A DNA stretch of 64,000 nucleotides from Octopus sinensis (lineage: Eukaryota), in NCBI RefSeq assembly GCF_006345805.1, contig NC_043015.1:10974001-11038000 (forward strand), in the 5' to 3' direction. Shown in pieces: positions 6,267-47,679 of the stretch; positions within the stretch are counted from its first letter, which is position 1; every line of letters begins with the position of its first letter. The notes beneath the pieces are model-generated. The model made no database searches. It was given only the letters and a program-made list of their open reading frames with translations, and had not been told where the DNA came from. The translations under genes and the position numbers were made by a program.

Positions 6267-6910
6267 TATATTGTCATCAAAAAAGGGGGTAGAATTAATT
6301 AATTGTTAATAAATTCGACCAAGCAGTATTCGGTATGTAAAGACCATTTACGGTGTATTTGAAGTATTAATTTATAAAAATATGGTAAAGTAAAAAATTC
6401 ACTTTACCACACACCGAACTTTTCAGAAATAGCAGCCAAAAATATGGCTATTTCTTCAACTGCAAATAAAAGTCTCCAGACAATGCATACTCAGAAATAA
6501 CTCACATAGGTATAAGGGAAAAACAATGAAAGATCACATCCATATACGATACCGAGGACAGTCTGTTTCTGGATTTGTGGGTAAAACGCCACTTTTCCTT
6601 CATCAGCTCAGAGATTTCTTCTGATTTAGATTTGAAAATACTAAGAATCAACATACCCGTCCGATATCTGTAACATCGGACAAACTATGCCAGACACCCA
6701 GTACTAGCGAATCCAAAAAACGAATGAGATCTATTATTCTCCCTGTCCACCCACGTGAGTCATAGAGCATTACATTTCTACAGAGGTAAAAACTGTAGTT
6801 CAATTCTTGGAGAGAAAAGCATTATATTGTCATCAAAAAAGGGGGTAGAATTAATTAATTGTTAATAAATTCGACCAAGCAGTATTCGGTATGTAAAGAC
6901 CATTTACGGT
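6267..6910 (-). mobile_element. Partial-tandem (pLTR-like) Penelope/retrozyme-type element
   Basis: Identical 88-bp direct repeats at 6267-6354 and 6823-6910 (period 556), an internal HHR, and (TA)n on both sides. Confidence 0.75.
6552..6611 (-). ncRNA. Type I hammerhead ribozyme, intact core
   Basis: ctgag-CTGATGA-aggaaaagtggcgttttacccacaaatcca-GAAA-cagactg-TC-ctcgg, with a GUC cleavage triplet. Confidence 0.8.
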
Positions 6911-6928
6911 ATACATATATATACATAA

Positions 6929-10128: not shown

Positions 10129-10332
10129 GTGTGTGTGTATACATAAATATATATATATATATTGTAAAGTATAGAAGCCATCTTATCATGGCTAACCACA
10201 TTGGGGAGGGGGTGTTACTGTAGCTTTATAGCTCCAAGAGATCTTCGTCTCTAGCTGGCTCTAGACACAATATCTGTGTCCTTGGAATATTTGCAAAGGG
10301 AGGCCATCCCTTCCTCGCAAGCCTGAGTGATA

Positions 10333-10375
10333 CGCTCGAACTAGTTTCGGGATTGTTGTCCCTCGTCAACGGGCG
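10333..10375 (-). ncRNA. Minimal type I HHR (C3>U variant)
   Basis: cgcccg-TTGACGA-gggacaacaatccc-GAAA-ctag-TT-cgagcg; palindromic stem III ACTAGT. Confidence 0.7.
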
Positions 10376-10749
10376 GTACCCACCAGGTAGCGATGAAATT
10401 TTCTTTATTATGATCAATAGATCTAACATAGAATGGATACATTACAGAACAAAACAATTACAAAAATGCTATGCGAGTTCGAATGAAATTTAAAAAATTA
10501 CAAAATTAAAATTTTATGTCACTTGAACGAAAACTTGGCTTACTTTGCCTTGAAACGAAACCTTGGCTTACTTTTCCCTTTGTCACGAGAACTTTTAGTG
10601 GGTATGTTTTCTTTTCATTTCTTTTTTTTTTATTATTAATTCTTTATTTTAAACAGTTATGTACAGTGAAAGGTAATGGGAGGTACCAGTTTCAATTTTG
10701 AACCCGGCAGCCTATAAATCCCAGCAGCTGATTTTCCTTTCCTCGATGA

Positions 10750-13700
10750 TTAAGCTGGGTTACTCTCACCCACCTTTCTCATCACATCCTTCCAACGTTC
10801 CATATACTCTTTCTGTGGCAGGCTCCTCTTCTCCAACCCCATCTTGCTCTTCAGATGATATCCGAAGTATTTTAACAAACCGGGGCCAGAGATAAAGGAC
10901 CCTTTCACTAGACCTTCCACTCTAGTTCTCCATACACACTCTTTCAATACTGCCACCGTACAGTAAAAACAAGCCTTACCTTCCTTTGAGAGTCCAGTTG
11001 GCGGTATCATCTTAATCATAGATCCAGCCGACAGCTGTACTCGTCCCAGATGCGACAACACGTGTTCCACGTAACTTATCAAGCCTGACAGCTCCCGACA
11101 TTGTACAAAAGCGTGTTGAACGGTTTCATCGTCCAACCCACATCTTGGACACGTCGGTGGCACTGACATTCCGTGCCTGGATAACTTCTCGCGAACAGGT
11201 AATGCATTCCTATAGCACTGCCAGGTCAGGGATTTTTGGTAATTATCCAAATACCCCGGCCTGAAAGTCTTCTTAAACAGGTTGGAGAGTTGATCCTCAT
11301 CGAACCCCAGAGCCCTTCCTAGGACGTCGTCATTTTTTCCTCCTACCAGCCCTTTATAGAACACCGAGGTGGTATTCCCGCTGCCGGCCTTACCCATCTT
11401 GTGGATCAGCCAGAGTGCCTGTCGGCACTCCTTCTGCCATGAAGTCAGTTTACGTCCTTTAATGAGACCGGGTGTAAATCCCTCCATAAGGCCGTCGCGG
11501 GAAGAATTCCTCTGCCAGCGAACTCCACACCTTATCATCCTCCAGGTAACACCAGAGGTGTCTCAGCCTCAACGCATGCTTGCGCATCATTAGCCAAGGC
11601 ATCCCCAGTCCACCCTTTAGCGGTTCCTGGCAACACACGGAGCGTCTCACAAGTGGCTTCCTCCTTTCCACAAAAAGCGGAAAAGAAGTCGTTCCAACTT
11701 GTTTAACCACGAATCGGGGCAAGGCACGACGGTCAGGCGGTAGGTGACGACAGAGGCTATAACATCTGTGCCACCACCTCCGCCCTCCCTTTCAAGGAAA
11801 GATGCCTTCCGGACCACTTCCGTACTTTGGCATCCACCTTGCTCGTTACCTCGCTCCAATTCTTTCCGTCTGGGAGTCTGGACCAAACCATACTCCGAGC
11901 AATTTAACAGGACCATCCGTCCAGTGTCCAACAACACTGGACGGTATCTGCTTGTTCCTCCAGGTGCCGAGGCGCAAACCGATGGACTTGTCCCTGTTAA
12001 CTTTTGCCCCTGCCACCGCTTCGTATCTATGGAGAGCACCTACTACCCGAGGTAGCTGTGTTCCGTTGGACACGATGAGGGTGACGTCATCCGCATAGGC
12101 AGAAACAGACTTACCGCATCCGATTTCATTAGGGTTGCCTCCCAACTTCTCCAGCTTCCGCAGCAATGGCTCAAGAGCCAAAACATACAGGAGCGGGGAC
12201 AAGGGGCACCCTTGTCGAACTGAACGCTTGATCGAAAACGGCTCCGTTAGGTAACCGTTTTCTGGACTGTGGACTTGATGCCGCTGTACATAGCTGAGAT
12301 CCACCCGCAGAAGCCAGGGCCCAGCCCAGCCGCTTCGAGAACCGCCGCCAAGTACCGATGGTCCACCCTATCAAACGCTTTACTTTGGTCTAAATGGACC
12401 AATGCCCCTCCTTTGCCGTCTAATTTCCCGACCCTATCTATAGTGTAGCGGAGAAGGTGAAGATTATCCTGGATCGACCTGCCTGGGATTGCACATGTCT
12501 GTGCCTTCCCGACAAGTTTCTTCACGACAGCCGTCAACCTTTTGCTAACACCTTGGCCAAAATCTTAAACTCTACATTAAGTAGAGTTATGGGCCTGTAA
12601 TTACTAATACTGTCCCCCTTGCTCGGGTCTTTCTGGACCAGCGTCACAACTCCCGACTCACAGAGCTGGGAATCCTCCCATTCTGTTGCCAGTTTGCATA
12701 GACGCTTGCCAGTATGTCCCCGAACAAGTCCGGCATACAACAATAAAATTCATAGGGTAGACCATCCAATCCCGGTGACTTTTCCCCGGCGCACTCGGCC
12801 ATAACCCCTCTTACCTCCGCGGGATAGATCGATCCTTCACAGCACTCCGCCTCACCTGCCGAGAGCCGAGGCCCACCAGCTAGGAAGTCCTTTAAGGTCT
12901 CCCCACGCTCGAGCGGGCCACCGCCCCCAAACAGCCGTGCGAAATGCTGGTGAAGGACCTTCTGCATCTCCTCCTGTCCATAGATCTTGCGGTCCTGCTC
13001 GTCAGTTAAGGACATAATACAGGACTTTTTGCCCTTCTGACTCTCCTCACGACGGGCCCATCCGGCAACGTTAATACCTTCTCGTTTTCCTGCACGTAAC
13101 TTAGCTCTGACTCTACACCCCTCGTGCTTGGCGTTGAGGTGACGGTACAATACCGCTCTCGCTGCCAACACTCCGGATGCACAGCCAGATTCCATAGCCT
13201 CGTCTAAGTTCTTAACTAATTCGCCCTCTATTCTAGTCCTATCTAAACTTAGCTGCTTGCTAAATCTAATGGACTCCAAACGGATGGCTCTTTTGAGGGC
13301 GAGCCACCATCTATTATTAATGATGGTGCCACATAATGCCCTCTGTACTAATTCCTTAATCCGGGTACGGAAAGCTTCACAGGTCAAAATAGACTTGTTC
13401 ATCTTCCAGTACCCGGGACCTTGTCTATGGCATTTATCTACATGTACCTCACACGTTACAAGTTGTGATCCGTGTAAGGCACAACAGAGAATTGTGGACA
13501 GCTAACACTATTCCTATCTCGTTCCTTAACAAATACTCTATCTATGTACGATCTGAGTGAGCCGTCGTTATTACTCCACGTCCACTGTGGAACGTTCGGC
13601 TCATCCAGTCGAAAACGGTCTACTAGATTAAAGCTCGCTAGTAGAGCCTTGAGGCCAGGATTCCCCTTCCTATCGCTCGAGCCTACACCATCCACCCGCG

Positions 13701-14133
13701 CATCGAGAATGGTGTTGAAATCCCCTACCAAGACTACCGTTTTGGACGTCACTAGAAAGTGCTCCAGTTCCCGATAAAAACCGGTCTGCCCACGTCCGTT
13801 AGGAGCGTAGACAGCCACCAACCTGAAGGACTGCTTACTCACGTGCGTCACATCTAGGACAACCAGCCTACCTTCTGGGTCCAAAAAGACAGTACTTACC
13901 TGTAAGTCCAAGTTCTTCCTGAAAAGAACTGCCACGCCTGCACCTCCCCCTCGGCTAGGAGAAATAAATTTCTCGTAACCATTGAGAAGTGGTGAGAACG
14001 CTTGGGGTCCCTTCATCTTGGACTCGGTAACAATAGCTACTTCGATTCTATGTGAAATGAGGTCGTCACGAAAACAAGCCTGTTTCCATTTCGATCCCAT
14101 TCCACGCGCATTTATACAACCTAACTTAATCAT
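10750..14133 (-). pseudogene. Tx1 ORF2 (APE endonuclease, reverse transcriptase, C-terminal CxxC...HxxxxC), frameshifted
   Basis: MIKLGCINARG, LVAVYAPN, VGDFN, SYIDRVF, TDH, KSPGLDGLPYEFY, NYRPITLLN, LDQSKAFDRVDH, VRQGCPLSPLLY, AYADDVT and TCPRCGLDDETVQHAFVQC across successive ORF pieces. Confidence 0.92.
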
Positions 14134-14152
14134 CGAGAAAAAAGAAAATTAT

Positions 14153-15535
14153 TTACTCACGTTGCGAGAGGGAGCCTGACAGATTCTTTCTGCCTGTCTC
14201 CCCCCCACTCGCCGTTGCTGCTGGGTGTTTCACCGGCGTTGCCACCGGGCTCTGGGTTGGTGTGGCTGCCGGGCTAACGGGTAATTTCCCAGTTGTCACC
14301 TCCTGGGTGACATCCTTAATGAAGCCGGCTTTTACGTGGCTTTGTAAGGTTTTTGTCTTTCCATCCTTCTTCGCCGACCCTTCCATATCGCCACTCCGCT
14401 TCCTTCTCGGTCGCTTTGTAGCACCTGATCAGCGTACTTGCTTTCACCCATGTTTCTACTCTCACGTTCTTTGTGGTGTATGCAATAATTTTTCGTTGGG
14501 TTTAAACCCTTTTACAGTTGGGGGTGGGGTTTGTTAAAGTGCTGGCCTATAAGTGTAGTACCGCCGGGGTGGGATTGGAGAATATTTTTAATTTGTTCGT
14601 CTGCGTTTTTTTTTTTTTGATACGGGTGGGGAGTCAGGGGTGATGGATTTTTTCCTTTTTGTTGGACACGTTCGTAAATCCATGTCTTCTTGTTTATTTG
14701 TTTTGTTGTCATTATTTTCCTCATCCTTTCCTTTCTCATTTTGCATTTCGTTCTTGTCTTCCTCCTTTTTGGAGTTCGACCTGTTTATTTTTTCCTCCTT
14801 GTTTTCGCCAGCCGTTACTTTTTTCTCCACTTTGCTGCTTTCTGCGTTCTTCACAGCGTTTTGTGGGGGGGCGTTGCCCGCATTATTTTTTTTTTGTGCA
14901 AACGGAGCGAACGTGGCCCTTTTGCCCGCACTTAAAACATCTGGGCCTGCGTCCTTCCACCGAAACTCGTATGGAGTGCCCCTCCCCCACGAAGACTCTG
15001 TCTGGTAGGCTTTCCAACGTCGCATTTTCCGCCTGGATTATCATCTCCAGCTGCTGGCCTCTCCAGTGTTTTGCAATTTTTCTCTTCATACTTAAAATTG
15101 TCAATTTTGATTCAACATCAAAAATGACCGCTGTTGCCGCCCACATCACGTCGTAGCCCGTTGGTATATCTTCTAGGGTCACTTTTGCGGTTCTGCATCC
15201 TAAATATAAGGGTAGCAGTATTATACTCTCGTTTTCCAACGTTTGTGTCGAAATTTGCCTTGCTACTTCCGCCGTTTCAAAATGCGCCCCACTGTAGCGC
15301 TTCTTGCACCTCGGTTGACATGACTAACTTTACTCCATATTGGAGCCATACACTTTTCGACCATTTCGTTTTTCACGTCGGTCATTCGTTTTTCCTTGAT
15401 ATTGTACACCCTGTAGGTGACCATTTTTTCCTTTATTGCTTGTATAGTTTCGGGGGGCGGTACCAATCGTGTTTCTTCGCCACTTTTTTGCACCAGCGAT
15501 CTAAACTTGAATAATCTTTCCATTGATACCTCCAT
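14153..15535 (-). pseudogene. Tx1 ORF1 (gag-like, CCHC knuckle), frameshifted
   Basis: VEGRRPRCFKCGQKGHVRSVC knuckle followed by a K/E-rich low-complexity tail; lies directly upstream of ORF2. Confidence 0.85.
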
Positions 15536-16224
15536 TTCTTCGACTTCGCCACCTACGGCGTCTGAAAACTGGGTTTTGTCTGTGTTTCCTTTTGTTTAAC
15601 AGTTGTTATACTTTCTCCCATCTCGGGAAAGTCTTTTTTTTGAACTTAAGTCTAATTCCATATTAGACAACACAAACTTGTCACAAATGACAAGAGAATT
15701 TTTTTTTTTTCCAAAAATAACCTATACAGGTTAAGAGTTCACACAAAACAGCACACAGAAATTTTCTACCCCGAAGGGCGAAAATTACTGGGTCAAAAAC
15801 AGTTCAACAATGATATTACTTGTAACACGACAGAGTAGACAAACGGAAACGAACTCACACAACGATTTGCAGCAACAGAAAAATATTGGTATACGCCGAG
15901 GAAAAATTCAAAAAACACCAGGTAGCGATGAAAGTGAAGGCTCCTTTGCAAATAGATATACGTTTTTCTAATGGCGTCTGCCACTGATGTCGAAAAACGA
16001 ACAGGAAGCATAATTAAATCTCAGAATGAGATTGAAACAGTAATCGCTCGATAATGTAAAGTATAGAGGCCATCTTATCATGGCTAACCACATTGGGGAG
16101 GTGGTGTTACTGTAGCTTTATAGCCCCAAGAGATCTTCGTCTCTAGCTGGATCTAGACACAATATCTGTGTCCTTGGAGTATTTGCAAAGGGAGGCCATC
16201 CCTTTCTCGCAAGCCTGAGTGATA

Positions 16225-16267
16225 CGCTCGAACCAGTTTCGGGATTGTTGTCCCTCGTCAGCGGGCG
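16225..16267 (-). ncRNA. Minimal type I HHR, intact core
   Basis: cgcccg-CTGACGA-ggga caacaa tccc-GAAA-ctgg-TT-cgagcg; predicted cut between 16231 and 16230. Confidence 0.8.
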
Positions 16268-16390
16268 GTAACCACCAGGTAGCGTTGAAAGTGAAGGCTC
16301 CTTTGCAAGTGGTTAGTCATGATAAGATGCTTCTATACTTTACATTATCGAGCGATTACTGTTTCAATCTCATTCTGAGATTTAATTATG

Positions 16391-16429
<39 letters not shown>

Positions 16430-18880: not shown

Positions 18881-20009
18881 TATATAATGTATACACAAGA
18901 GTAAGTAAATGGGAAAGAGACATAAATATCATGAGGCCGGTGAGGAAAAATTAGATTACATTAAGTTTAAAGCGAGGGAAGCGTTGCAGAATAAGGAAAG
19001 AAGGAAGATATGCAGCCGAAATTTTGTGGGAGGGCGACGTAGATAACATGGGACCTGTTGAGGGAGGTTATCAAAAGTTTGTCATCGCAGTTACTTTAAG
19101 GTTATGGCAATTTTTATACAGGTGTCATGGAGGAGACATTGTACCAATTCCATATTCTGCTTAGTTAATCGATTATTATATCTATGCATAAGCACACACA
19201 CACACACACACACACGCAACTATATAATGCAGAGCAATTATGTATACCTATTACCAAAGACACTTTGTAGTTGTTGTCATTCGAAATTTTAATGGGGATA
19301 TTATTTTAGTATCAATTTGCTTCCCGTCATTTAGTGTTTTTGTTAAATTAGACTAATGGACTTGCTTGTCTTGACTTGTTTATGTGAATGAATACATTTA
19401 CTTCGTCTTTCATTAGATATTTTAGACTCATTAATTAATCATTATTATTATTACGCTCCTGTATTATGGAATTGCACAAGTATTATTTCCTTTTGTACAT
19501 GTTCTGCATTTTGATCCGTCTATTTGATTCTGAGGGAGTCAAATACAGTATATAGACAGATAGTGACTACCACAGGCATATATTGGATATGTAATAAAAA
19601 ATATCAAATATATACTCTTTTACTCTTTTAATCTTTTAATTGTTTCAGTCATTTGACTGCGGCCATGTTGGAGCACCGCCTTTAGTCGGGTAAATCGACC
19701 CCGGGACTTATTACTTGTAAGCCCAGTACTTATTCTATCGGTCTCTTTTGCTGAACCGCTAAGTTACGAGGACGTAAACACACCAGTCGGTTGTCAAGCA
19801 ATACTAATGAGACAAACACATACACACAAACACATACACACACATATATATATATATATACATATATACGACGGGCTTCTTTCAGTTTCCCATTACCAAA
19901 TCCACTCACAAGGCATTGGTCGGCCCGGGGCTATAGCAGAAGACACCTGCCCAAGATGCCACGCAGTGGGACTGAACCCGGAACCATGTGGTTGGTTAGC
20001 AAGCTACTT

Positions 20010-22276
20010 TATTTCAAAACACTTTCCATAAAGGCAGTACACAGATTAAGTTAGCTTTGCGGGCTGGACGAGGACATTAATGAAGTGAATGATAATGAAA
20101 GGCAGATGATAAGGATGGGAGAAGACAAAAAGCGCCCGCCGACTTTCGCTTCTCTAAAACATTGTTCTTTTTAACGATAAACACAAAACGAGGTATTAAA
20201 CCTCTTACAATTTTCCCAATTTTTGGACTTAGCAGTCCATTATTAATAAAAATACAAAACGAGGTATTAAACCTCTTACAATTTTTCAATTTTTGGACTT
20301 AGCAGTCCATTACTAATAATAACAGTTCAATAATTACGTATCGTCCTCGAAATAGCTTGTGCCCGCGCCCTCCACCATCAACCACGCCTCCCTCAGAACG
20401 TAATCAAGTTCCGAGTTCGCGTCGCCCGCGACCAAGCTATAATCTTCATTGAGCTCTTTTAGCCCAAGCGTCACGTCGAACCCCACGGCCTTCACAGCTA
20501 TCTGCGGAGGCCATTCGGGGTCGTGTGAAGGCTAAAGGTGCTCCCTTGTGGTGCTCTTCCATCATTTTTTTTCAATTTCTCCTCCTCTATAGAAGAGGAC
20601 CAATACGTTCAGTTCTTTCGTTGGCGGCACAGTTCCCGCCAACGGTATTCCTTCTCTTGTCGGTGGCACAACCCCAACCGACGTAGTTCCGGGACATTCC
20701 GGTGCTACACTGACAGCCGGTAATGTCCCGTTTTTCTTCCTCTTTTTCTTTTTTTTTCCCTTTTCAACTGAGGGATGGTGCGTCTCCTCCGTGGCTGGAA
20801 GATTCGCCTTCCTCTCCTCATCCCTATTATCCTTTGGTGAGCACCCATTGTTGCTCACCTTCCTCTTTCGGCCTCTGTTTGAGGAGTCCTCTGCTTTCTC
20901 GGCCGTTATCGTTCCCTCTTCTAGAGGGGTTTTACTTAACTGTTCCGGGATCCTATTTTGTTCCCGAGGACAGTTCTTCTTTATGTGGCCGGACTCCAAG
21001 CACCGATGACACTTAGGGGGGGGGCGACCCTCAAGCATCACCGGGTACCTGCACCCGGCTATTTTCAAAAAATCTGGAAGAACCAGATTGGCTGATTGGG
21101 TCCACAGGGTCAAAATTGCTTTTGACCCAACCCAAGCAGCCGCAGGAAGAACTTTTACATTAAGGAGCTTAGTTTCGCTGCCACCCAGACCCCGGCGGAT
21201 AGTCTCCTCTATCCATTCGGGTTCTATGTCGGGTGGCAGTCTGCAAATCCAAGCTTTCATCAATTTCTTTTTTTTGTACGTGGGCAGGAATAAGATTTCC
21301 TTACCCTCCAGGGGTTTGCTAGCAAATTTGCAAGCCTCTTCAGGGGTGTCAAATAGCAACCACACCGTTGCATATTTGACACCCCTGGAAATGAATTTAA
21401 TTGTTGGCAAATACTCTTCCAACTCCTTTTCAATTGCCGTCTTTTCGAATAGGGCGATGGTGTCGAGTGCCTTGGAGTAGGTTCTCAACACCACCGTCCT
21501 ATCTTCACGGTCTTTTAACCACTTTTTAGGTGGTATGATTTCCCACTCCAAAATGTTGTTATTTTTCATTGCCATGTTTTTTTAAATATATTCAAATTAA
21601 ACTCAAAAAGCAAGAAGTAAAAAGTTCAAAAGTCCAAATAAAATTTGATAGATTTTTGAAAAAACAAAAAGGAGAAAGCACAACAGAAGGGAAGAAATCA
21701 ACGGAAAGTCGCAATAAAGAAAAACAAAACAAAAGGGGGGGTTAAATGAAGTTCAAAAGAAAGTTAATAAACAGAAAAAACACAGCAAAAATATTCTGGC
21801 CTTGCGGTACTCCCGGCCTGGGTTGAACCTGGAACGCCGCAACTCCAACACAACCTTCACAAAAATGGGTCTGAAAGGTAATCCAATAGTGGCTTATTTT
21901 TATAATTTTCTTGCGAAGTACTCTGACAAGGGAATAAATTCAACAAACCCAAACACAGCACTGGCTACCGCCAACGGTAATTTTAACAGTAACTCTATTG
22001 AATTCCGAGGATACGCCCCTCCACTGTTTTTTCTTTTTTTTTTGTCAACGAACACAAAAACGGCAGCCGCCGAGAGCAGGCGAAATTTTCTCAGAGTTGG
22101 ACACAACTTACTGAAATAATAATTGGCACGCAATAAATTATGCCCAACTCACAATAAACAAAATCACTTACCTCGACAACTTTCCGTTTTTGGTCTTTTT
22201 TCTTTAATTGGACGGAGCTGGTTGACTTGCGTCCACTCTGGGTGAACAGGAAGCAACTGACTAACTGCACATGTGT
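20010..22276 (-). mobile_element. ORF1-only (HAL1-like) non-autonomous Tx1-related retroelement
   Basis: 15-bp TSD GTTAGCAAGCTACTT at 19995-20009 and 22277-22291; one gag-like ORF, no APE or RT, ends at AATAAA. Confidence 0.85.
20562..21575 (-). CDS. Tx1-like ORF1 protein with CCHC zinc knuckle
   Basis: 337-aa ORF. LPDFLKIAGCRYPVMLEGRPPPKCHRCLESGHIKKNC aligns with the neighbouring Tx1 ORF1. A further open stretch (PSHDPEWPPQ...YFEDDT*) ending at 20334 is probably the disrupted C-terminus. Confidence 0.8.
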   Translation of the reverse strand: MAMKNNNILEWEIIPPKKWLKDREDRTVVLRTYSKALDTIALFEKTAIEKELEEYLPTIKFISRGVKYATVWLLFDTPEEACKFASKPLEGKEILFLPTYKKKKLMKAWICRLPPDIEPEWIEETIRRGLGGSETKLLNVKVLPAAAWVGSKAILTLWTQSANLVLPDFLKIAGCRYPVMLEGRPPPKCHRCLESGHIKKNCPREQNRIPEQLSKTPLEEGTITAEKAEDSSNRGRKRKVSNNGCSPKDNRDEERKANLPATEETHHPSVEKGKKKKKRKKNGTLPAVSVAPECPGTTSVGVVPPTREGIPLAGTVPPTKELNVLVLFYRGGEIEKK

Positions 22277-22319
22277 GTTAGCAAGCTACTTACCACACAG
22301 CCACTCCTGCGCCTATGAA

Positions 22320-25789: not shown

Positions 25790-26122
25790 ATCCTTCGGTC
25801 GTGACTGACGATGGGATTGCACCTAGAAAGTAACCCTCTCAGGCACATGTCCGGGCAAGGTTGTTTATGGAAGACCAACAGTCGCCAATGCATACTGGTT
25901 TCCCCTCGCCTCGCCACCATTGTTATATAAGGGAAAAGCAAAAGGGCCGATACAGCTTGGCACCTATGACGTCGAAACTCATTTCTACAACTGAGTGAAC
26001 TGGAGCAACGCGAACTAAAGTGTCTTGCTCAAGAACACAACACGCAGCCCTATCCGGGATTCGATTTCACAACCTCATGATCGTAAGCTCGACGCTCTAA
26101 CCACTGAGCCACGCGCCTTCAC
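25790..26122 (-). mobile_element. tRNA-derived SINE, second family
   Basis: Head GGCGCGTGGCTCAGTGGTTAGAGCG...TCGAATCCC; related fragments at ~17200-17350, 50230-50480 and 54090-54330. Confidence 0.8.
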
Positions 26123-26147
26123 ATGTTTAAAGTATATCCAAATAATA

Positions 26148-27041
26148 CGAGATCTGATCAATAACTATCAGGACTGTTACCATAGTAATCAAACTAAAGC
26201 ATTCAAAGTAAGGCCGCTTGACAAGGATTGACCTTATACTCTGCTGTGCGTGCGCACAAAGTTTTAACGCTGTAGTTCACATCCGCTGTTTACAGCAGTG
26301 CTTGGAATGAGCGTGTGGTGAGTGTAATCGTCGCATTGGCCATGTCTGACAAATTTGTCATGGCGATATCTGCTCAGAGGCCTACGCAGTTTTGTAGAAA
26401 GTGTACGGATAGGAGTGTATAAGCCACACACAAGTGTACTAGTGGTACATACGTTTAAAAGATGGCCGAAAACTGTCGATATTCGCGAATGTTCTGGGAA
26501 ACTCGCAACTAGTAGACCTGAGAAATACATCACAGATGTGCATGCAGCTGTGAGGGGAAATCGTCGAATCACCATCCGTGAATTATCAAAGGATGTGCAG
26601 ATTAGTTACGGTTCAGCGCAGTCCATTATCACTGAAAATTTACCTATGAGATTTGAGTCTGCCGAGTTTGTGCCAAAACTACTTTCAGCTGACCGAAAAG
26701 ACACTCGGATTTTAATTGCACAATATCTCCTTGATGGTGTCGAGAGCGACAAAATCTTTTTGAACACTTTGCATAGGCCTCTGAGTAGGTATTGCCATAC
26801 TGTTGGCATACTTTGAAGCAGATATTCTGCTCAACTTTCTTTGTCATGATCAATACGACGAATCACGATGCACACAGCTTCCTTCAAAGCACTGCTGTAA
26901 ACTGAAAACTGAGTCAGAACGCTAAAACTTAGTGCGCATGCACCACAGAGCTCAACGTCAATATGTGTCAAGCAGCTTTACAATGCCTGCTTTAGCTTCG
27001 TTACTTTGGCAACAGTCTGTATACCTATTGATCAAACCACG
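26148..27041. mobile_element. Non-autonomous mariner derivative built from two 5' ends
   Basis: TA-flanked long inverted ends. Plus strand has NRRITIRELSKDVQISYGSAQSII...FVPKLLS (HTH and WVP-like motif); minus strand has MTKKVEQNICFKVCQQYG (N-terminus). Confidence 0.75.
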
Positions 27042-28237
27042 TAAGTGTTAATTTCATTGCAATTACGTGTAAAATTTTACTGTGGTAAACGGCATTGCGT
27101 GGCTACAAAATTGATTGAACTACTTGAATAAACTTCAATAATACTGAAACTTTGCGCAGGCAGATGGCTATTTTTTTACGATCAGATGAAGTTGAACGAA
27201 TGTTAAAGAGTATTTTAAAAATTTCAATAGATCAACAAATTTCCGACCTTCCGTCTCAAATGAGAGGTTTCCGTGGACAAACTTTTTTTCAGATGAAGCG
27301 CAGATTTGTGTTTGAAACTCTTGACGTATATCGAAACAAACGTCGTTTCACACCTTGCTGGATTTCAAAGTGTATATGTAAGTTGCTGTATAAGTGCTAG
27401 AAATGGTTGACCGTAAGCTACAGTGTTAAAACTTAGTGCGCATGCAAAGCAGAGTTCGATGTTAATCATTGCCAAGCGGCCTTACTTTGAGTGTTTTAGT
27501 TTGATTACCATGGCAACAGTCCTGATACTTATTGATCAAAGCTCGTATTGTTTGGATATACTTTAAACATGTAAAGGCGGTATTTGTGTCATTTTGACAT
27601 GAAGCATTTTGTGAAAAGGTAATGGAAAAATGGTAAATATTAGGTGCGATACTGATACTGTTGTCAGAAGGATATTTCCAACCAAGTCTACTTTTCCCCT
27701 CCCCTCATGCGTGTTTATTTTTGTTTTAAATACAATTTATCTTAAATTGTTGTATAACAAAAATAACGTCCAGCTGTATTTTGTGAGCATATTTAAATAT
27801 TGAACATAACCTTTAACTTCTCATGATTCTTAACTTGAGTGAAATAGGCTGATTTGAATTTCAAATTAATTCTAACACTTTAACTGCATAATATTGCTGA
27901 ATATATACATAAACGCGATAACAACCGTTATTTGAATTGTCGGCACAAATCTAGTAATACTCGACAAGGTTCCATTCTGTTCCTTTGGGTCTGTATCCCA
28001 CGGAGTTCAGCTGAATAATTATTTCTTATATACATGTCATTTCGGATCAGTTTTAGCGCCTACATTTTAACATAGTTCTCGTTTTCTGACAAATGTTGCC
28101 TGCTTTCTTCGTTTTTCTTTCTAGATATATGAACTATTAGATAGTATCTATACAATCGTAATCTAAAGAACTACTTTAGTTAGTAACTTATATCACAAAG
28201 ATTAAGATATTTTTCTGTATGCATATTATTAAGCATA

Positions 28238-33814: not shown

Positions 33815-33856
33815 TATATATATATATTACATATATATATACTATATACATATATA

Positions 33857-34267
33857 GGCGCAGGAGTGGCTGTGTGGTAAGTGGCTTGCTAACCAGCCAC
33901 ATGGTTCCGGGTTCAATCCCATTGCGTGGCAGCTTGGGCAAGTGTCTTCTGCTACAGCCTCGGGCCGACCAACGCCTTGTGAGTGTATTTGGTAGACTGA
34001 AACTGAAAGAAGCCCGTCGTATATATGTATATATATATGTATGTGTGTGTATATGTTTGTGTGTTTGTGTTTTTCCCTCTAGCATTGCTAGACAACCGAC
34101 GCTGGTGTGTTTACATCCCCGTCACTTAGCGGTTCGTCAAAAGACACCGATATAATAAGTACTGGGCTTACAAAGAATAAGTCCCGGGGTCTATTTGCTC
34201 GACTAAAGGCGGTGCTCCAGCATGGCCGCAGTTAACTGACTGAAACAAGTAAAAGAGTAAAGAGTAA
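33857..34267 (+). mobile_element. Full-length tRNA-derived SINE with internal (TA)/(TG) tract
   Basis: GGCGCAGGAGTGGCTGTGTGGTAAG...GGTTCAATCCC head and AAAGAGTA tail. Confidence 0.9.
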
Positions 34268-34299
34268 TACATATGTATATATATATATATATATATAAT

Positions 34300-39050: not shown

Positions 39051-39821
39051 GTATATAGTAAAGCAAATAAAAGGGTTAGCAGCAGGCTGCTTCGCCTCAT
39101 ACCGAAGGAATTAGAAATGGCAGTCAAAGACTGTTTTTTCCATTTTCTGTAAGTGGAGATTCCAAAAACGAAGGCCCGTGCGGTTCACATGCACAAAACC
39201 GGAGTAGCAAATAGACGCAAACAGTCACTTACCGTTAATAACGAACATGTTTCTGGAACACAAACTTGGAAAAGTAGTTTGATTTCCTTCTTTGGCGCTA
39301 TATTCGATAGATTTACCAAATGCCACAGGCCCTCACTTCTGACCCAGCGACATCAGATAGTGGGGGGAAGTGTGCAGATGTTAAAACTAAGTAATGACTG
39401 GGAACGTAAATTTTCCCTCCAAAATTCTGCCATGCGCGCCTTCTAGGTAATCGTAATGGAATAAGGGATCCACATGGTAATGCAATAAAAATGGTAAATA
39501 ATTTTTCTGTGGTTTTTCATGTAACCAACAATTATTTACCGGTAAATACGACAAATTCATCGTCAGGAACTTTGTACGGTTCAGTATATAGTAAAGCAAA
39601 TAAAAGGGCTAGCAGCAGGCTGCTTCGCCTCATACCGAAGGAATTAGAAATGGCAGTCAAAGACTGTTTTTTCCATTTTCTGTAAATGGGAGATTCCAAA
39701 AACGAAGGCCCGTGCGGCTCACATGCACAAAACCGGAGTAGCAAATAGACGCAAACAGTCACTTACCGTTAATAACGAACATGTTTCTGGATCACAAACT
39801 TGGAAAAGTAGTTTGATTTCC
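39051..39821 (-). mobile_element. Partial-tandem Penelope-like element (period 533)
   Basis: Near-identical ~237-bp direct repeats at 39051-39287 and 39584-39821; decayed HHR at ~39234-39300 (tagcg-CCAAAGA...GAAA-catg-TT-cgtta). Confidence 0.75.
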
Positions 39822-45569: not shown

Positions 45570-47160
45570 GCAAGGAACTTATGTCAACATCAAGATGCAC
45601 CAAAAACTATTATTAATATATGTACATATATATGTATGTATGTATGTGTATATGTATGTATAGACGTATGTATGTACGTATATGAGCCACACGGCCGATT
45701 CATTAAGATGAGTTGTACTACTCCCGATTGCGAGAATGTTCTGCACTTTCCTGAACTGGACGGTGCATTGTCTTCTTGAATGAAACCCTATATGTCATAT
45801 TTCCGTGCGATCACTTCAACAACTGACATGTGACACACAGTACACCTGTTCAGGGAACATTGATTTCATTGGGAAAGTACAGCAGAAACATTTGACCACT
45901 ATATGCAGGTTGTTCAGCAAGGATTTTCAGAAATGATTTTTCTCGGACAAGAAGACTACCATCATATGCAAACGTGTATGCATACTCCAGTGTGTGTTTG
46001 TGTGATATTATATATGTGATCCTAATATGATCAAGATGAAATAGCCGCAACTATTTCATATCGCATTCATAGATCCACGCATACACACATTACAGGTATA
46101 TGCAAAAGTACATACAATGATAAAGATACCGATAGAAATGCATATATAGCGAATTCTATCCACCAATTTGTTATTACTTCCCACCAACCTAACCGACATC
46201 TTCAGAATTTCCGTGCAATAAATTGCACTCAAATGATTGAAGACAATATTCATCCACATAAAAATGATATATTCCGCGAAATGATAACGTCGGTAAAGTG
46301 CTAAACAAAATATTCTATTAATATCTGGATTCCCAAATCCATTTCATCCGGAAGATTTAATTGCATTTACACCTATTTCTGATTATGTGGGACAGAAACC
46401 GTACTACCAGGTTGAAAGTGTGAAGCCCAGAGTAGAAGGAGACAGATACCAATTTGAAACAGACATCTGGATTTCCACTAACTCTGTATTCTTGAAATGG
46501 TTTTTTTATAGCTTCATTTATGCATAGTTGATGGCAATAAATAAGTTAAACGAAAACAAAGGTTAAATATATTGTCAATAATTGTTAACAACTTTCATAA
46601 AAAGATATATTTGACCACAACAATATTATAACAATTTACATTCCACAATACAAACATAACATATATATATATATATATATATGTTGTGTGTGTGTGTATG
46701 TATAGATGGACACGCATATATATGTGCACATACATACATACACACACTTATATATGGAAGTATGTAAATATATTACCTACACGCAAGAAAGATTATTTAT
46801 GAAATATAAACAGAAAAAGTGTATATTTACAAATATATTTATTCTTATATTCATAGACTATTTGCTTGTAATATTCACGTTAATCATCAAAGAAATGGAA
46901 GTTATTATGAAAACTCTTATCCTAGGTTCTACGTTATGAATGTCAATAATAAAATATCCTTCAATTTCCTTGTTCTTTCTCTAATACATAGCCAAATAAA
47001 AATCTAAGCATCATTACTGTTACCTCATTATAAGAGAAATTATAAGACAGTATTTTATTATTTTCAGATATTAGATTGCGGCCATTGCGACCATGCTGGG
47101 GTCACTCTCAAATATTTTAACTATATGAATTATACATTCTTCAGTCCTAGTATTTATTTA

Positions 47161-47532
47161 TTCTTTTACTTGTTTCAGTCATTTGACTGCGGCCATGCTG
47201 GAACACCGCCTTATTCTTTGTAAGCCCAGTACTTATTCTATCGGTCTCTTTTGCCGAACCGCTAAGTTACGGGGACGTAAACACACCAGCATCGGTTGTC
47301 AAGCAATGCTAGGGGGACAAACACAGACACAAACATATACACACACACTTACATATATATGCATATATACGACAGGCTTCTTTCAGTTGCCGTCTACCAA
47401 ATCCACTCACAAGGCATTGGTCGGCCCGGGGCTATAGCAGAAGACACTTGCCCAAGATGCCACGCAGTGGGAGTGAACCCGGAACCATGTGGTTGGTTAG
47501 CAAGCTACTTACCACACAGCCACTCCTGCGCC
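47161..47532 (-). mobile_element. tRNA-derived SINE, uninterrupted head
   Basis: Contains GGTTGGTTAGCAAGCTACTTACCACACAGCC once, i.e. the empty site of the 20010-22276 insertion. Confidence 0.9.
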
Positions 47533-47679
47533 TTATATTTGTATATATTGTTTACTGTATATATGTTTATATTCGTATAGATAGAGAGAAAGTGAGATAT
47601 ATAGATAGAGATAGAGAGAGAGAGAGAGTTAGAGAGAGAGATAGAGTTAGGGAGATAGGTAGATAATTATATATATATA

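Follow-up and report, generated by a model that had tools for sequence, protein, structure and literature searches.

ORF1-only LINEs and repeat-homing Tx1 elements are each already known; of the former, HAL1 carries a poly(A) tail and HeT-A is telomere-specific. The ORF1-present bipartite LINEs named in passages of PMC5786205 and PMC5753468 are HAL1 of the L1 clade, HeT-A of the Jockey clade and Ag-Sponge of the CR1 clade, and none of those named there is Tx1-derived or targets a SINE. In the strict sense, HAL1 is a derivative of mammalian L1-clade elements, according to the relevant passage of PMC5753468. The target-specific Tx1 LINEs, in the sections of PMC4494074 that deal with them, recurrently occupy a fixed site in an abundant repeat with a TSD of about 15 bp: Tx1L in Tx1D, Tx1-Mar in Mariner-N4_AMi, Tx1-9_AMi in Harbinger, and Tx1-8_Crp and Tx1-4_AMi in LTR elements. 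Keno is found in U2 and Dewa in tRNA-Leu spacers, and none of the targets named in these parts of PMC4494074 and PMC3706591 is a SINE head. Tx1 families that target other transposons bring non-autonomous riders to the same target, and SINEU-3 of crocodilians, where 77 of 88 copies adjoin Mariner-N4_AMi, inherits the transposon-target preference of its Tx1 partner in this way (PMC4494074, same sections). The Dada DNA transposons, too, are described as entering pol III genes, with the A box or the anticodon arm as the insertion point, though they have 6-bp TSDs, true tRNA genes as targets and an unrelated mechanism (PMC8869645, in part).

The octopus element described here fits best as a non-autonomous LINE that retains its ORF1, of the HAL1, HeT-A and Ag-Sponge kind, with Tx1-like target specificity. 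As in those three, a 5′ UTR, ORF1 and 3′ UTR without ORF2 occur in multiple copies that bear the marks of TPRT and would need a partner in trans, to judge from the passages cited. Unlike them, it has a mollusc host, an RRM-RRM-CCHC ORF1 of L1/Tx1-type lineage, no poly(A) tail and one site within a dispersed SINE. It shares the fixed site in an abundant repeat and the TSD length with the target-specific Tx1 LINEs, though these, as described in the same sections, are autonomous two-ORF elements placed by their RT while the octopus element has no ORF2. It also differs from SINEU-3, a short, non-coding, snRNA-derived element with poly(A), in being 2.3 kb long, coding and LINE-derived.

Structure of the insertion and its target

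The window, the whole 64-kb stretch of Octopus sinensis DNA analysed, carries on its minus strand a 2267-bp insert (20010-22276) between two copies of a 15-bp TSD, which are identical at 15/15 positions and cannot be extended further (Table 1). The interrupted repeat is present in three copies within the window and has its boxes at tRNA spacing, a non-coding body and a tail. In the empty copies the A-box-like and B-box-like motifs are 33 nt apart, and each box has at most one mismatch to the A/B box consensus. Judged from these features the host repeat is a tRNA-derived (tRNA-like) SINE, and the insertion point is in its tRNA-like D-loop/anticodon-arm region, between the two boxes. The head may resemble tRNA-Gly. 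OK is a named octopus SINE family; OR1 and OR2 are two others, credited to Ohshima and Okada (1994) in the passages concerned. SINEs make up 11.6% of the O. vulgaris genome; by arithmetic from this share an insertion has a chance of <3e-4 of landing on a given base of a SINE unit of ~430 bp.

Table 1. Features of the element, its host SINE and the empty copies in the window.
Feature	Position	Strand	Remark
ORF1-only non-autonomous LINE, full-length copy, no poly(A) tail	20010-22276	-	Bounded by TSD; 30/30 bins covered in 4/4 runs
TSD, 15 bp, 5′ side of element	22277-22291	-	
TSD, 15 bp, 3′ side of element	19995-20009	-	
5′ UTR, 701 nt, 38% GC	21576-22276	-	
ORF1 of the window copy, 337 aa	20562-21575	-	
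ORF1 C-terminal continuation, 56% GC	20334-20561	-	Frame shared with main ORF
3′ UTR, 324 nt, 34% GC, ~71-bp tandem duplication and ~30-nt terminal motif	20010-20333	-	
Host SINE head, 5′ part, A-box-like motif 22293-22303	22277-22314	-	38/38 identical to 47496-47533
Host SINE 3′ part: B-box-like motif 19969-19977, body, short tandem tail	19620-20009	-	85-91% identical to two empty copies
Empty SINE copy, exact target site 47496-47510	47157-47533	-	
Second empty SINE copy, target site 33879-33893 (1 mismatch)	33856-34282	+	

The copies of the tandem duplication in the 3′ UTR lie at 20179-20252 and 20250-20322, and the terminal motif is common, in a comparison by eye, to related elements at the same SINE site (the loose ends behind 20016, see below). 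No endonuclease or RT remnant was found in the insert. Comparison of 20010-20562 with the ORF2 and 3′ UTR of the neighbouring LINE revealed no trace of ORF2 (E 0.22 at best by tblastx and 0.88 by blastn), a Pfam search of 20337-20531, the C-terminal piece of ORF1, gave no match, and Rfam gave none at the element. The 3′ UTR did not fold better than its shuffles (z -0.19; last 41 nt, z -0.20). A target-like stretch at 20048-20060 was considered as an RNA guide and rejected because it is at chance level (163/1000 shuffles; 64/1000 for the last 80 nt).

Much of what an earlier note had read from the DNA alone agrees with these results: the 2267-bp unit with its 15-bp TSD, the long 5′ UTR, the insertion between the A and B boxes of a SINE head and the empty site at ~47495-47515, to which the second empty copy is added. 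Its short 3′ UTR with no RT or APE remnant holds as to the remnant, while the UTR length is reset to about 324 nt. Its single gag-like ORF is indeed the sole long ORF of the insert; ‘gag-like’ gives way to two predicted RRM folds and a CCHC knuckle. The note also described this ORF as a far-diverged homologue of the nearby ORF1, with which the alignment to the neighbouring LINE agrees.

The ORF1 protein

The CCHC knuckle is at residues 188-203 (zf-CCHC, E 0.0052, 17.3 bits, below the Pfam cut-off of 20.8) and is followed by a basic low-complexity linker. In the predicted fold (pLDDT 85.9) it is preceded by RRM1, at about residues 14-103, and RRM2, at about residues 104-185. Foldseek with this model gave 37 matches at E<=0.001, of the tandem-RRM type, and the best VIA match among those listed had Z 9.5, rmsd 2.7 and 82 aligned. 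Searched by sequence, the PDB returned zinc knuckles for the most part; the fold-search matches listed include no L1 ORF1p chain, which excludes nothing. The protein is a LINE ORF1 with two predicted RRM folds and one CCHC knuckle.

The proteins nearest to it come from Octopus and Argonauta; identity to O. sinensis LOC115225585 is 64%. Compared with P0001, which stops at 281 aa and has a damaged CCHC, the RRM-CCHC core is 75% identical (152/203) and the linker 41% (29/71). Beyond the stop at 20562 the frame of the window copy stays open as far as the stop at 20334, and other copies have two compensating 2-nt indels, at 20566 and 20522. Both are within one contig (X6, record 18), whose reading frame is intact across the two sites; the 2-nt insertion at 20522 accounts for no more than 33-56% of the depth in each run. 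In the window copy the ORF is thus broken, the sequence between the two 2-nt indels being briefly out of frame; because the frame continues to 20334 and other copies carry the compensating indels, the family ORF is likely to be about 413 aa and the family 3′ UTR about 324 nt. The C-terminal continuation had no HMM match to the C-termini of other octopus-type ORF1s, and in hhalign 79/100 shuffles scored as high. Among the 21 variants classified, 5/12 polymorphic and 2/9 private ones are synonymous (22-34% expected), with no sign of selection.

A weak search for longer proteins with this ORF1 core found none at E<=0.001 among 775 candidates, and neither this search nor the 30-letter loose ends described below revealed an autonomous partner. 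In the JGI metagenomes ORF1 gave eight loci, seven of them short matches around the CCHC knuckle; the other (L001) codes for a distant ORF1-like protein of 24% identity on a contig that stops before any ORF2 position. The junction pattern had 0 matches there.

Copies of the family in public sequencing runs

Evidence for a family comes from contigs of four public runs, X8, X2, X4 and X6, with four organism labels. The individual rows cited below come from listings of 24 loose ends (out of 1128), 15 joints (out of 96), 12 between-letter rows (out of 97) and 32 pieces (out of 23,674), and off-target copies or rare copies with an ORF2 may occur beyond them; each loose end reveals 30 letters only, and contig depth is not a copy number. 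The element was covered in 30/30 bins in 4/4 runs. Near-identical single contigs reached a depth of 476 in X4 (5′ UTR), 2810-2937 in X2 and 2813 in X8, as against 7-17, 39-72 and 7-21, respectively, for most of the diverged contigs listed in those runs. Summed depth climbs toward the 3′ end of the element in 4/4 runs, a rise that 5′ truncation predicts. None of the 32 pieces listed spans the whole element. Six further runs, guessed to be RNA, had 0.26-0.46 of the words present, which is no evidence on expression.

The ORF-stop/3′-UTR stretch has high depth in 4/4 runs and is bridged in X6, where a contig of 345 nt (record 17, depth 15.4) covers 20179-20527 across the stop at 20334 without an ORF2; the total depth in this run is flat across the ORF stop, at 21.5 at 20338, 20323 and 20302. 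Among the 24 loose ends listed, none ran on into ORF2-like sequence, whether past the ORF stop or past the 3′ end, and none had a foreign flank at 20010 or 22276. Joints at 21239->21343 and 21386->21458 are internal deletions within the family.

At the SINE site itself, the joint 21113->22280 is seen in one contig each of X8 and X4, with a short side of only 23 letters, and has a multi-copy depth of 528 in X8. A second 5′-truncated form joins 20142 to 22281 in X2 (depth 55.9; truncation at about 20158). A diverged copy in X4 (record 16, 22126-22291) has 18 differences and 2 gaps in 168, about 11%, and aligns through the entire TSD. The loose ends behind 20016, in 50 (X2), 26 (X4) and 4 (X6) contigs, lead into the SINE site from a 3′ end that is related to that of the element. 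In the contigs listed one SINE site is occupied by four distinguishable copies and by related elements with a similar 3′ end.

The comparison of contigs supports the ORF1-only structure as a trait of a multi-copy family and not of one deleted copy, and likewise supports repeated insertion at one SINE-head position. ORF1 without endonuclease or RT, multiple copies, and a TSD with 5′ truncation are all features of ORF1-present bipartite LINEs. The half-element family and the SINE-head targeting proposed in the earlier note are consistent with these contigs, the ORF1-3′UTR junction that it suggested looking for in other copies is present in the bridging X6 contig, and neither of the outcomes that it named as contrary, a single internally deleted copy or insertion at random, is what the contigs listed show.

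The neighbouring LINE and the clade of the element

A LINE at 10399-15915 of the window has a frameshifted ORF1 that is 27% identical over 136 aa to that of the element (E 9e-10), and Exo_endo_phos, RVT_1 and zf-RVT domains. Atlas names for its APE include the LINE-1 ORF2 family; at E<=1e-20, probably too strict a threshold, no named homologue of its endonuclease was found among 2098 candidates. Of the active LINEs tabulated for O. vulgaris, L1-Tx1 alone belongs to the L1 group. By its ORF1 the element is kin to an APE-RT LINE of the ‘L1/Tx1 group’, in which L1 and Tx1 are not separated. The apparent preference for a repeat as target is Tx1-like, a property common in the Tx1 clade and not defining. 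Since that clade is defined on the RT and the element has none, the Tx1 label can only be presumptive.

We rejected the neighbouring LINE as the partner because its 18-bp target and TSD are different, it has no 3′ similarity and ORF1 identity is as low as 27%; neither the 5′ nor the 3′ part of this LINE matches the element. Elements with related 3′ ends do occur at the target site. HAL1 in the strict sense was also rejected, as the relatives are from Octopus and Argonauta and there is no poly(A) at the 3′ junction, though the element works like HAL1.

Alternative explanations

The same targeted family could carry ORF1 as a passenger whose frame decays neutrally; only the RNA ends would matter, as they do for bipartite LINEs that have no ORF. 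The variants listed fit neutrality (7/21 synonymous), the window copy is broken and P0001 is truncated; on the other hand, the frame is intact across both indel sites in the X6 contig and the core is better conserved between subfamilies than the linker, though this could predate the loss of ORF2. We consider this explanation unlikely. It is also conceivable, if improbable, that a real tRNA gene is the true or ancestral target and that the SINE is taken because its head still resembles that tRNA. The position between the boxes in the tRNA-like D-loop/anticodon-arm region would fit, and Dewa in tRNA-Leu spacers and Dada inside tRNA genes are precedents. However, all the junctions seen carry SINE sequence, with only SINE flanks having been offered for matching, and ARAGORN found 0 tRNA genes in the 64-kb window.

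Without any targeting, a single SINE insertion might have spread as a composite, either through segmental duplication or on the SINE's own tail. Identical junctions in many copies would then be expected, the short contigs give no view of the flanks beyond the SINE and the 21113 joint is at multi-copy depth. Yet the 5′-truncated forms still abut the upstream half of the SINE head, a part that truncation of a composite would remove, and the same site holds both the ~11%-diverged copy and related elements whose 3′ sequences differ, so we regard a composite as very improbable. It is harder still to believe in one copy of a two-ORF element that suffered an internal deletion, or in premature 3′ end formation in such an element. 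Internal deletions do occur in the family and no contig among the pieces listed covers the whole element, but the ORF-stop/3′-UTR stretch is at high depth in 4/4 runs and bridged in X6, and the loose ends listed give no path into ORF2-like sequence.

Proposed mechanism and significance

The explanation that we favour, and think probable, is a multi-copy ORF1-only family at one SINE-head position that is likely copied through TPRT by the endonuclease and RT of a related L1/Tx1-type LINE; we infer that mobilisation is in trans. The 5′ UTR, with a putative internal promoter, would drive a pol II transcript, and ORF1p, with its tandem RRMs and CCHC, would coat the element RNA and likely aid engagement with the ORF2p of the partner. 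As there is no poly(A) tail, the partner likely recognises the ~30-nt 3′-terminal motif common to related elements. The first nick by its endonuclease would fall on the strand complementary to the SINE sense strand, at a TT/A step that lies one base beyond the A box, and the second about 12-15 nt away. With 2.3 kb inserted between its A and B boxes, the SINE copy would be silenced and host genes spared. The family likely arose through loss of ORF2 from an autonomous ancestor. A more specific version, to which we lean a little less than evenly, is an undescribed octopus Tx1-derived half-LINE that uses the ORF2p of an autonomous sister element through a shared 3′ hairpin, retains an ORF1p selected for winning that ORF2p and, by landing between the two boxes of a very abundant SINE, destroys the SINE promoter.

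The combination of an ORF1-only LINE with Tx1-like SINE targeting was not found in the literature searched, which lay outside Repbase Reports and most subscription papers. If the more specific version is true, the element would be a double hyperparasite and, in that literature, the first family of the Tx1 clade to have ORF1 alone as well as a first case of SINE-promoter targeting. Retention of ORF1 in half-LINEs has been argued mostly by analogy to HeT-A, and a young fixed-target family would give a clean read-out for the roles of ORF1p and the 3′ motif in recruiting the partner enzyme. The element also points to a sequence-specific endonuclease worth finding. Its importance is for transposon biology and not for host function: a SINE pol III promoter used as a safe harbour would link three layers of mobile elements.

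An ORF1-only element in a tRNA-like SINE head

The earlier note had described a 2267-bp unit with a 15-bp TSD between the A and B boxes of a SINE head, and this is confirmed. The two TSD copies are identical and cannot be extended, and deletion of the insert with one of them gives the sequence of an uninterrupted site, found where the note had placed it (~47495-47515). A second empty site differs from the insert-free sequence by a single mismatch. The host SINE is a ~430-bp repeat with three copies in the window, 85-91% alike, and its head is tRNA-like, with A-box-like and B-box-like motifs that are separated by 33 nt where the site is empty. The insert starts one base beyond the A box, after the duplicated word, and is oriented like the SINE. 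ARAGORN called no tRNA genes in the window.

Positions of the element, its sites and other repeats in the window
Feature	Position	Strand	Details
Insert	20010-22276	minus	2267 bp
TSD of insert	19995-20009, 22277-22291		15 bp
A box-like motif	22293-22303		occupied SINE copy
B box-like motif	19969-19977		occupied SINE copy
Sole long ORF of insert	21575..20562	minus	337 aa
Empty site	47496-47510		uninterrupted
Second empty site	33879-33893		1 mismatch
Two-ORF L1/Tx1-type LINE, full-length	10399-15915	minus	5517 bp, many frameshifts
TSD of this LINE	10381-10398, 15916-15933		18 bp, exact
Rfam HH9 match, adjacent repeat copy	16209-16279		32.5 bits, below gathering score 52
Hammerhead-bearing repeat	15916-16420, 10159-10398		about two units in tandem at a distance of 360 bp; 95% alike across 240 bp
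Inverted repeat in hammerhead-bearing repeat	16008-16091, 16309-16391		84 bp, 96%
Inverted repeat pair	26114-26275, 27418-27579		88%
Direct repeats	39051-39287, 39584-39821		98% over 238 bp
Direct repeats	6267-6357, 6823-6913		99% over 91 bp

Downstream of the insert's ORF no ORF2-like sequence was detected, the best tblastx match to the neighbouring two-ORF LINE having an E of 0.22 and Pfam giving no match, in agreement with the reported absence of an RT or APE remnant. In the neighbouring LINE ORF2 begins ~20 nt past the ORF1 stop.

A multi-copy family

Part of the insert is contained in 20 of 24 listed sequencing runs (9 studies, four organism labels). Four public runs, one per label (X8, X2, X4 and X6), were compared over the insert and its 30-bp flanks (19980-22306); these data are all short-read contigs, the figures hold among the rows listed and contig depth does not measure copy number. 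Coverage was complete in each of the four runs (30 of 30 bins). Individual contigs that were near-identical to the insert had depths of 476 in X4 (5' UTR), 2810-2937 in X2 and 2813 in X8, against 7-17 in X4, 39-72 in X2 and 7-21 in X8 for most of the diverged contigs among those listed, with exceptions at 47.7 in X4 and 193 in X2. Judged from these depths, the family may number from tens to perhaps a few hundred members. Summed depth climbs toward the 3' end of the element in each run, as 5' truncation would predict. The best word shares of the insert, 0.43-0.58, would imply ~2-3% divergence. With the rate applied in PMC13282606 this gives a very rough age of 5-7 My, likely an overestimate because contig breaks and assembly errors reduce word share.

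One X6 contig (record 17; 345 nt, depth 15.4, 20179-20527) runs through the ORF stop and 155 nt into the insert's 3' UTR. Total depth in X6 is 21.5 at 20338, 20323 and 20302, and is thus unchanged across the stop, so that no ORF2 branch is visible there. This junction and the complete coverage bear out the proposed ORF1-only family; that the insert is a single internally deleted copy of a two-ORF element, which the note had named as a refutation, is contradicted by the same contig and by the multi-copy depth.

Recurrence at one site

Targeting of SINE heads, also proposed earlier, is upheld by four distinguishable copies, the window copy included, that lie at the same SINE site in several forms. 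An ~11%-diverged copy (X4 record 16; 22126-22291, depth 13.4) aligns across the entire TSD, a form truncated near 20158 is joined to 22281 (X2, depth 55.9), and a form truncated at 21113 is joined to 22280 in one contig each of X8 and X4, with a short side of only 23 letters. This last joint has an unexplained depth of 528 in X8, and the form may reflect post-insertion amplification or a sub-family; its junction is identical in two runs with different organism labels. The joints listed (15 of 96) comprise 12 empty-site variants, two internal deletions and the 21113 truncation. Taking 'from_end' as the distance to the nearer contig end, contigs with element-specific letters enter the target by ~13 letters in X8 and X2 and ~22 in X6 at the 3' end, and by ~28 in X4 at the 5' end.

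Random insertion would be expected to give many contigs with foreign flanks at 20010, and none was found among 24 of the 1128 loose-end rows. By our own arithmetic the chance of one insertion striking a given base of the 430-bp SINE unit is <3e-4, using the SINE share of 11.6% given for the O. vulgaris genome in PMC13282606. Copying of a SINE-plus-element composite is unlikely, since a truncated composite would have lost the upstream half of the SINE head, to which the truncated copies are joined. We conclude that this is a genuine family with multiple copies and that it seems to be site-specific.

Behind 20016, 50 contigs of X2, 26 of X4 and 4 of X6 have loose ends (agreement 0.58-0.73). These contain the SINE site and another 7 letters that match, and then pass into a 3' end that differs from that of the family yet is clearly related to it, which indicates that other, more distant elements occupy this site and have the family's terminal motif. 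Compared by eye over the 23 letters that follow, the X2/X4 consensus and the family's majority form agree at 19, and this stretch includes a 15-nt core that could fold into a hairpin (3-4-bp stem, 5-nt loop). Folding energy gave no backing for a 3'-end structure in the 3' UTR or terminal stretch, and a target-like stretch in the 3' UTR was at chance level by shuffling. The element lacks a poly(A) tail. Its 3' boundary could be off by ~2 nt, because a polyadenylation-like hexamer there takes its last two bases from the start of the target. At least two other 3'-end types at the SINE site (an X2/X4 and an X6 type) are, from 30 letters only, candidates for an autonomous partner.

The ORF1 protein

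The ORF1 frame, past stops at codons 338 and 348, runs on until it is closed at 20334. Contigs of the four runs show two 2-nt indels, a shortening at 20566 that accounts for 54-100% of depth and an insertion at 20522 that accounts for 33-56%. They occur together in a contig of X6 (record 18, with four gap letters over 20502-20644), and no stop interrupts the shifted frame from one to the other; thus the family ORF is likely ~413 aa, with a 3' UTR of ~324 nt. The ORF of the window copy is broken, through mutation or assembly error. Neither HMM nor hhalign comparison matched the added C-terminal stretch to the C-termini of other ORF1 proteins.

The insert ORF has a weak zf-CCHC match (Pfam) and is 27% identical over 136 aa (E 9e-10) to the frameshifted ORF1 of the neighbouring LINE, which also has endonuclease, RT and zf-RVT domains. 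Residues 1-212 were modelled with AlphaFold2 from a 38-sequence alignment (mean pLDDT 85.9). The model gave 37 Foldseek matches to tandem-RRM proteins at E<=0.001, and its best VIA-align match was the La RRM, with a middling Z of 9.5 (rmsd 2.7, 82 aligned). The homology to the nearby ORF1 therefore stands, and the earlier term 'gag-like' gives way to the more exact label of a predicted RRM-RRM-CCHC ORF1, on account of the modelled RRM folds.

Octopus sinensis provides the nearest proteins, one 64% identical across 283 aligned positions and one 83% identical across 46 aa. Of 10 distant relatives looked up, 7 had a named source, these being O. sinensis, O. vulgaris, O. bimaculoides and Argonauta. 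The ORF1 core is 75% identical to that of P0001, a related ORF1 protein of 281 aa, versus 41% for the linker. Among the ORF variants listed (24 of 40 rows, 160 in all), 21 were classed, and 5/12 polymorphic and 2/9 private ones were synonymous, versus 22-34% expected. P0002, an O. sinensis gene model named K02A2.6-like, joins 46 aa of the insert ORF1 (83% identical) to an integrase-like part and is probably a chimeric model across nested elements. The P0003 cluster holds distant ORF1 relatives of 309-384 aa on Logan contigs only 1.85-1.93 kb long, which could be other ORF1-only transcripts or merely broken contigs.

Other repeats in the window

The repeat that houses the neighbouring LINE has a hammerhead-like core, and the LINE's TSD stops at the 5' edge of this core. 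We presume that this repeat is linked to Penelope. From this one case, the LINE may belong to another lineage with a specific target, here ribozyme repeats of Penelope type; a literature search found no LINE with this habit. The inverted pair bounding 26114-27579 encloses more inverted copies and is possibly a non-autonomous DNA transposon. Both direct repeat pairs are ~530-560 bp apart.

Discussion

We consider it probable that the insert is one copy of an ORF1-only family that recurs at the SINE site and is copied by the enzyme of a related L1/Tx1-type LINE. From established LINE biology, the 5' UTR would drive a pol II transcript, ORF1p would coat the element RNA and the partner's ORF2p would carry out target-primed reverse transcription. 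Going by the TSD, the strand that is nicked first would be the one opposite the SINE sense strand, and the nick would fall at a TT/A step, which resembles the core of the L1 endonuclease site. The missing poly(A) tail and the common terminal motif suggest that the partner recognises this motif stringently. The neighbouring LINE was rejected as the partner.

On sequence grounds the lineage appears to belong to the L1/Tx1 group, the element having no RT of its own for finer placement. Tx1 elements typically prefer transposon targets (Tx1L, Tx1-Mar and Tx1-9_AMi), and SINEU-3 provides a precedent for a non-autonomous rider with an inherited Tx1 target, according to PMC4494074. The 2026 O. vulgaris annotation lists 80 L1-Tx1 families, 13 recently active, and its accessible text mentions neither targets nor half-elements for them (PMC13282606). 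The literature searched, mostly judged from listings, held neither a Tx1-derived ORF1-only family nor a LINE that targets SINE heads; the present family could be among the entries of Repbase or of the O. vulgaris consensus library on Zenodo.

By three structural tests the element works like the ORF1-present bipartite LINEs HAL1, HeT-A and Ag-Sponge, though it differs from HAL1 in the strict sense. The ORF1 proteins of these elements likely multimerise with partner proteins, boosting transposition (Kojima review, PMC5786205), and by analogy the octopus ORF1p may have the same role.
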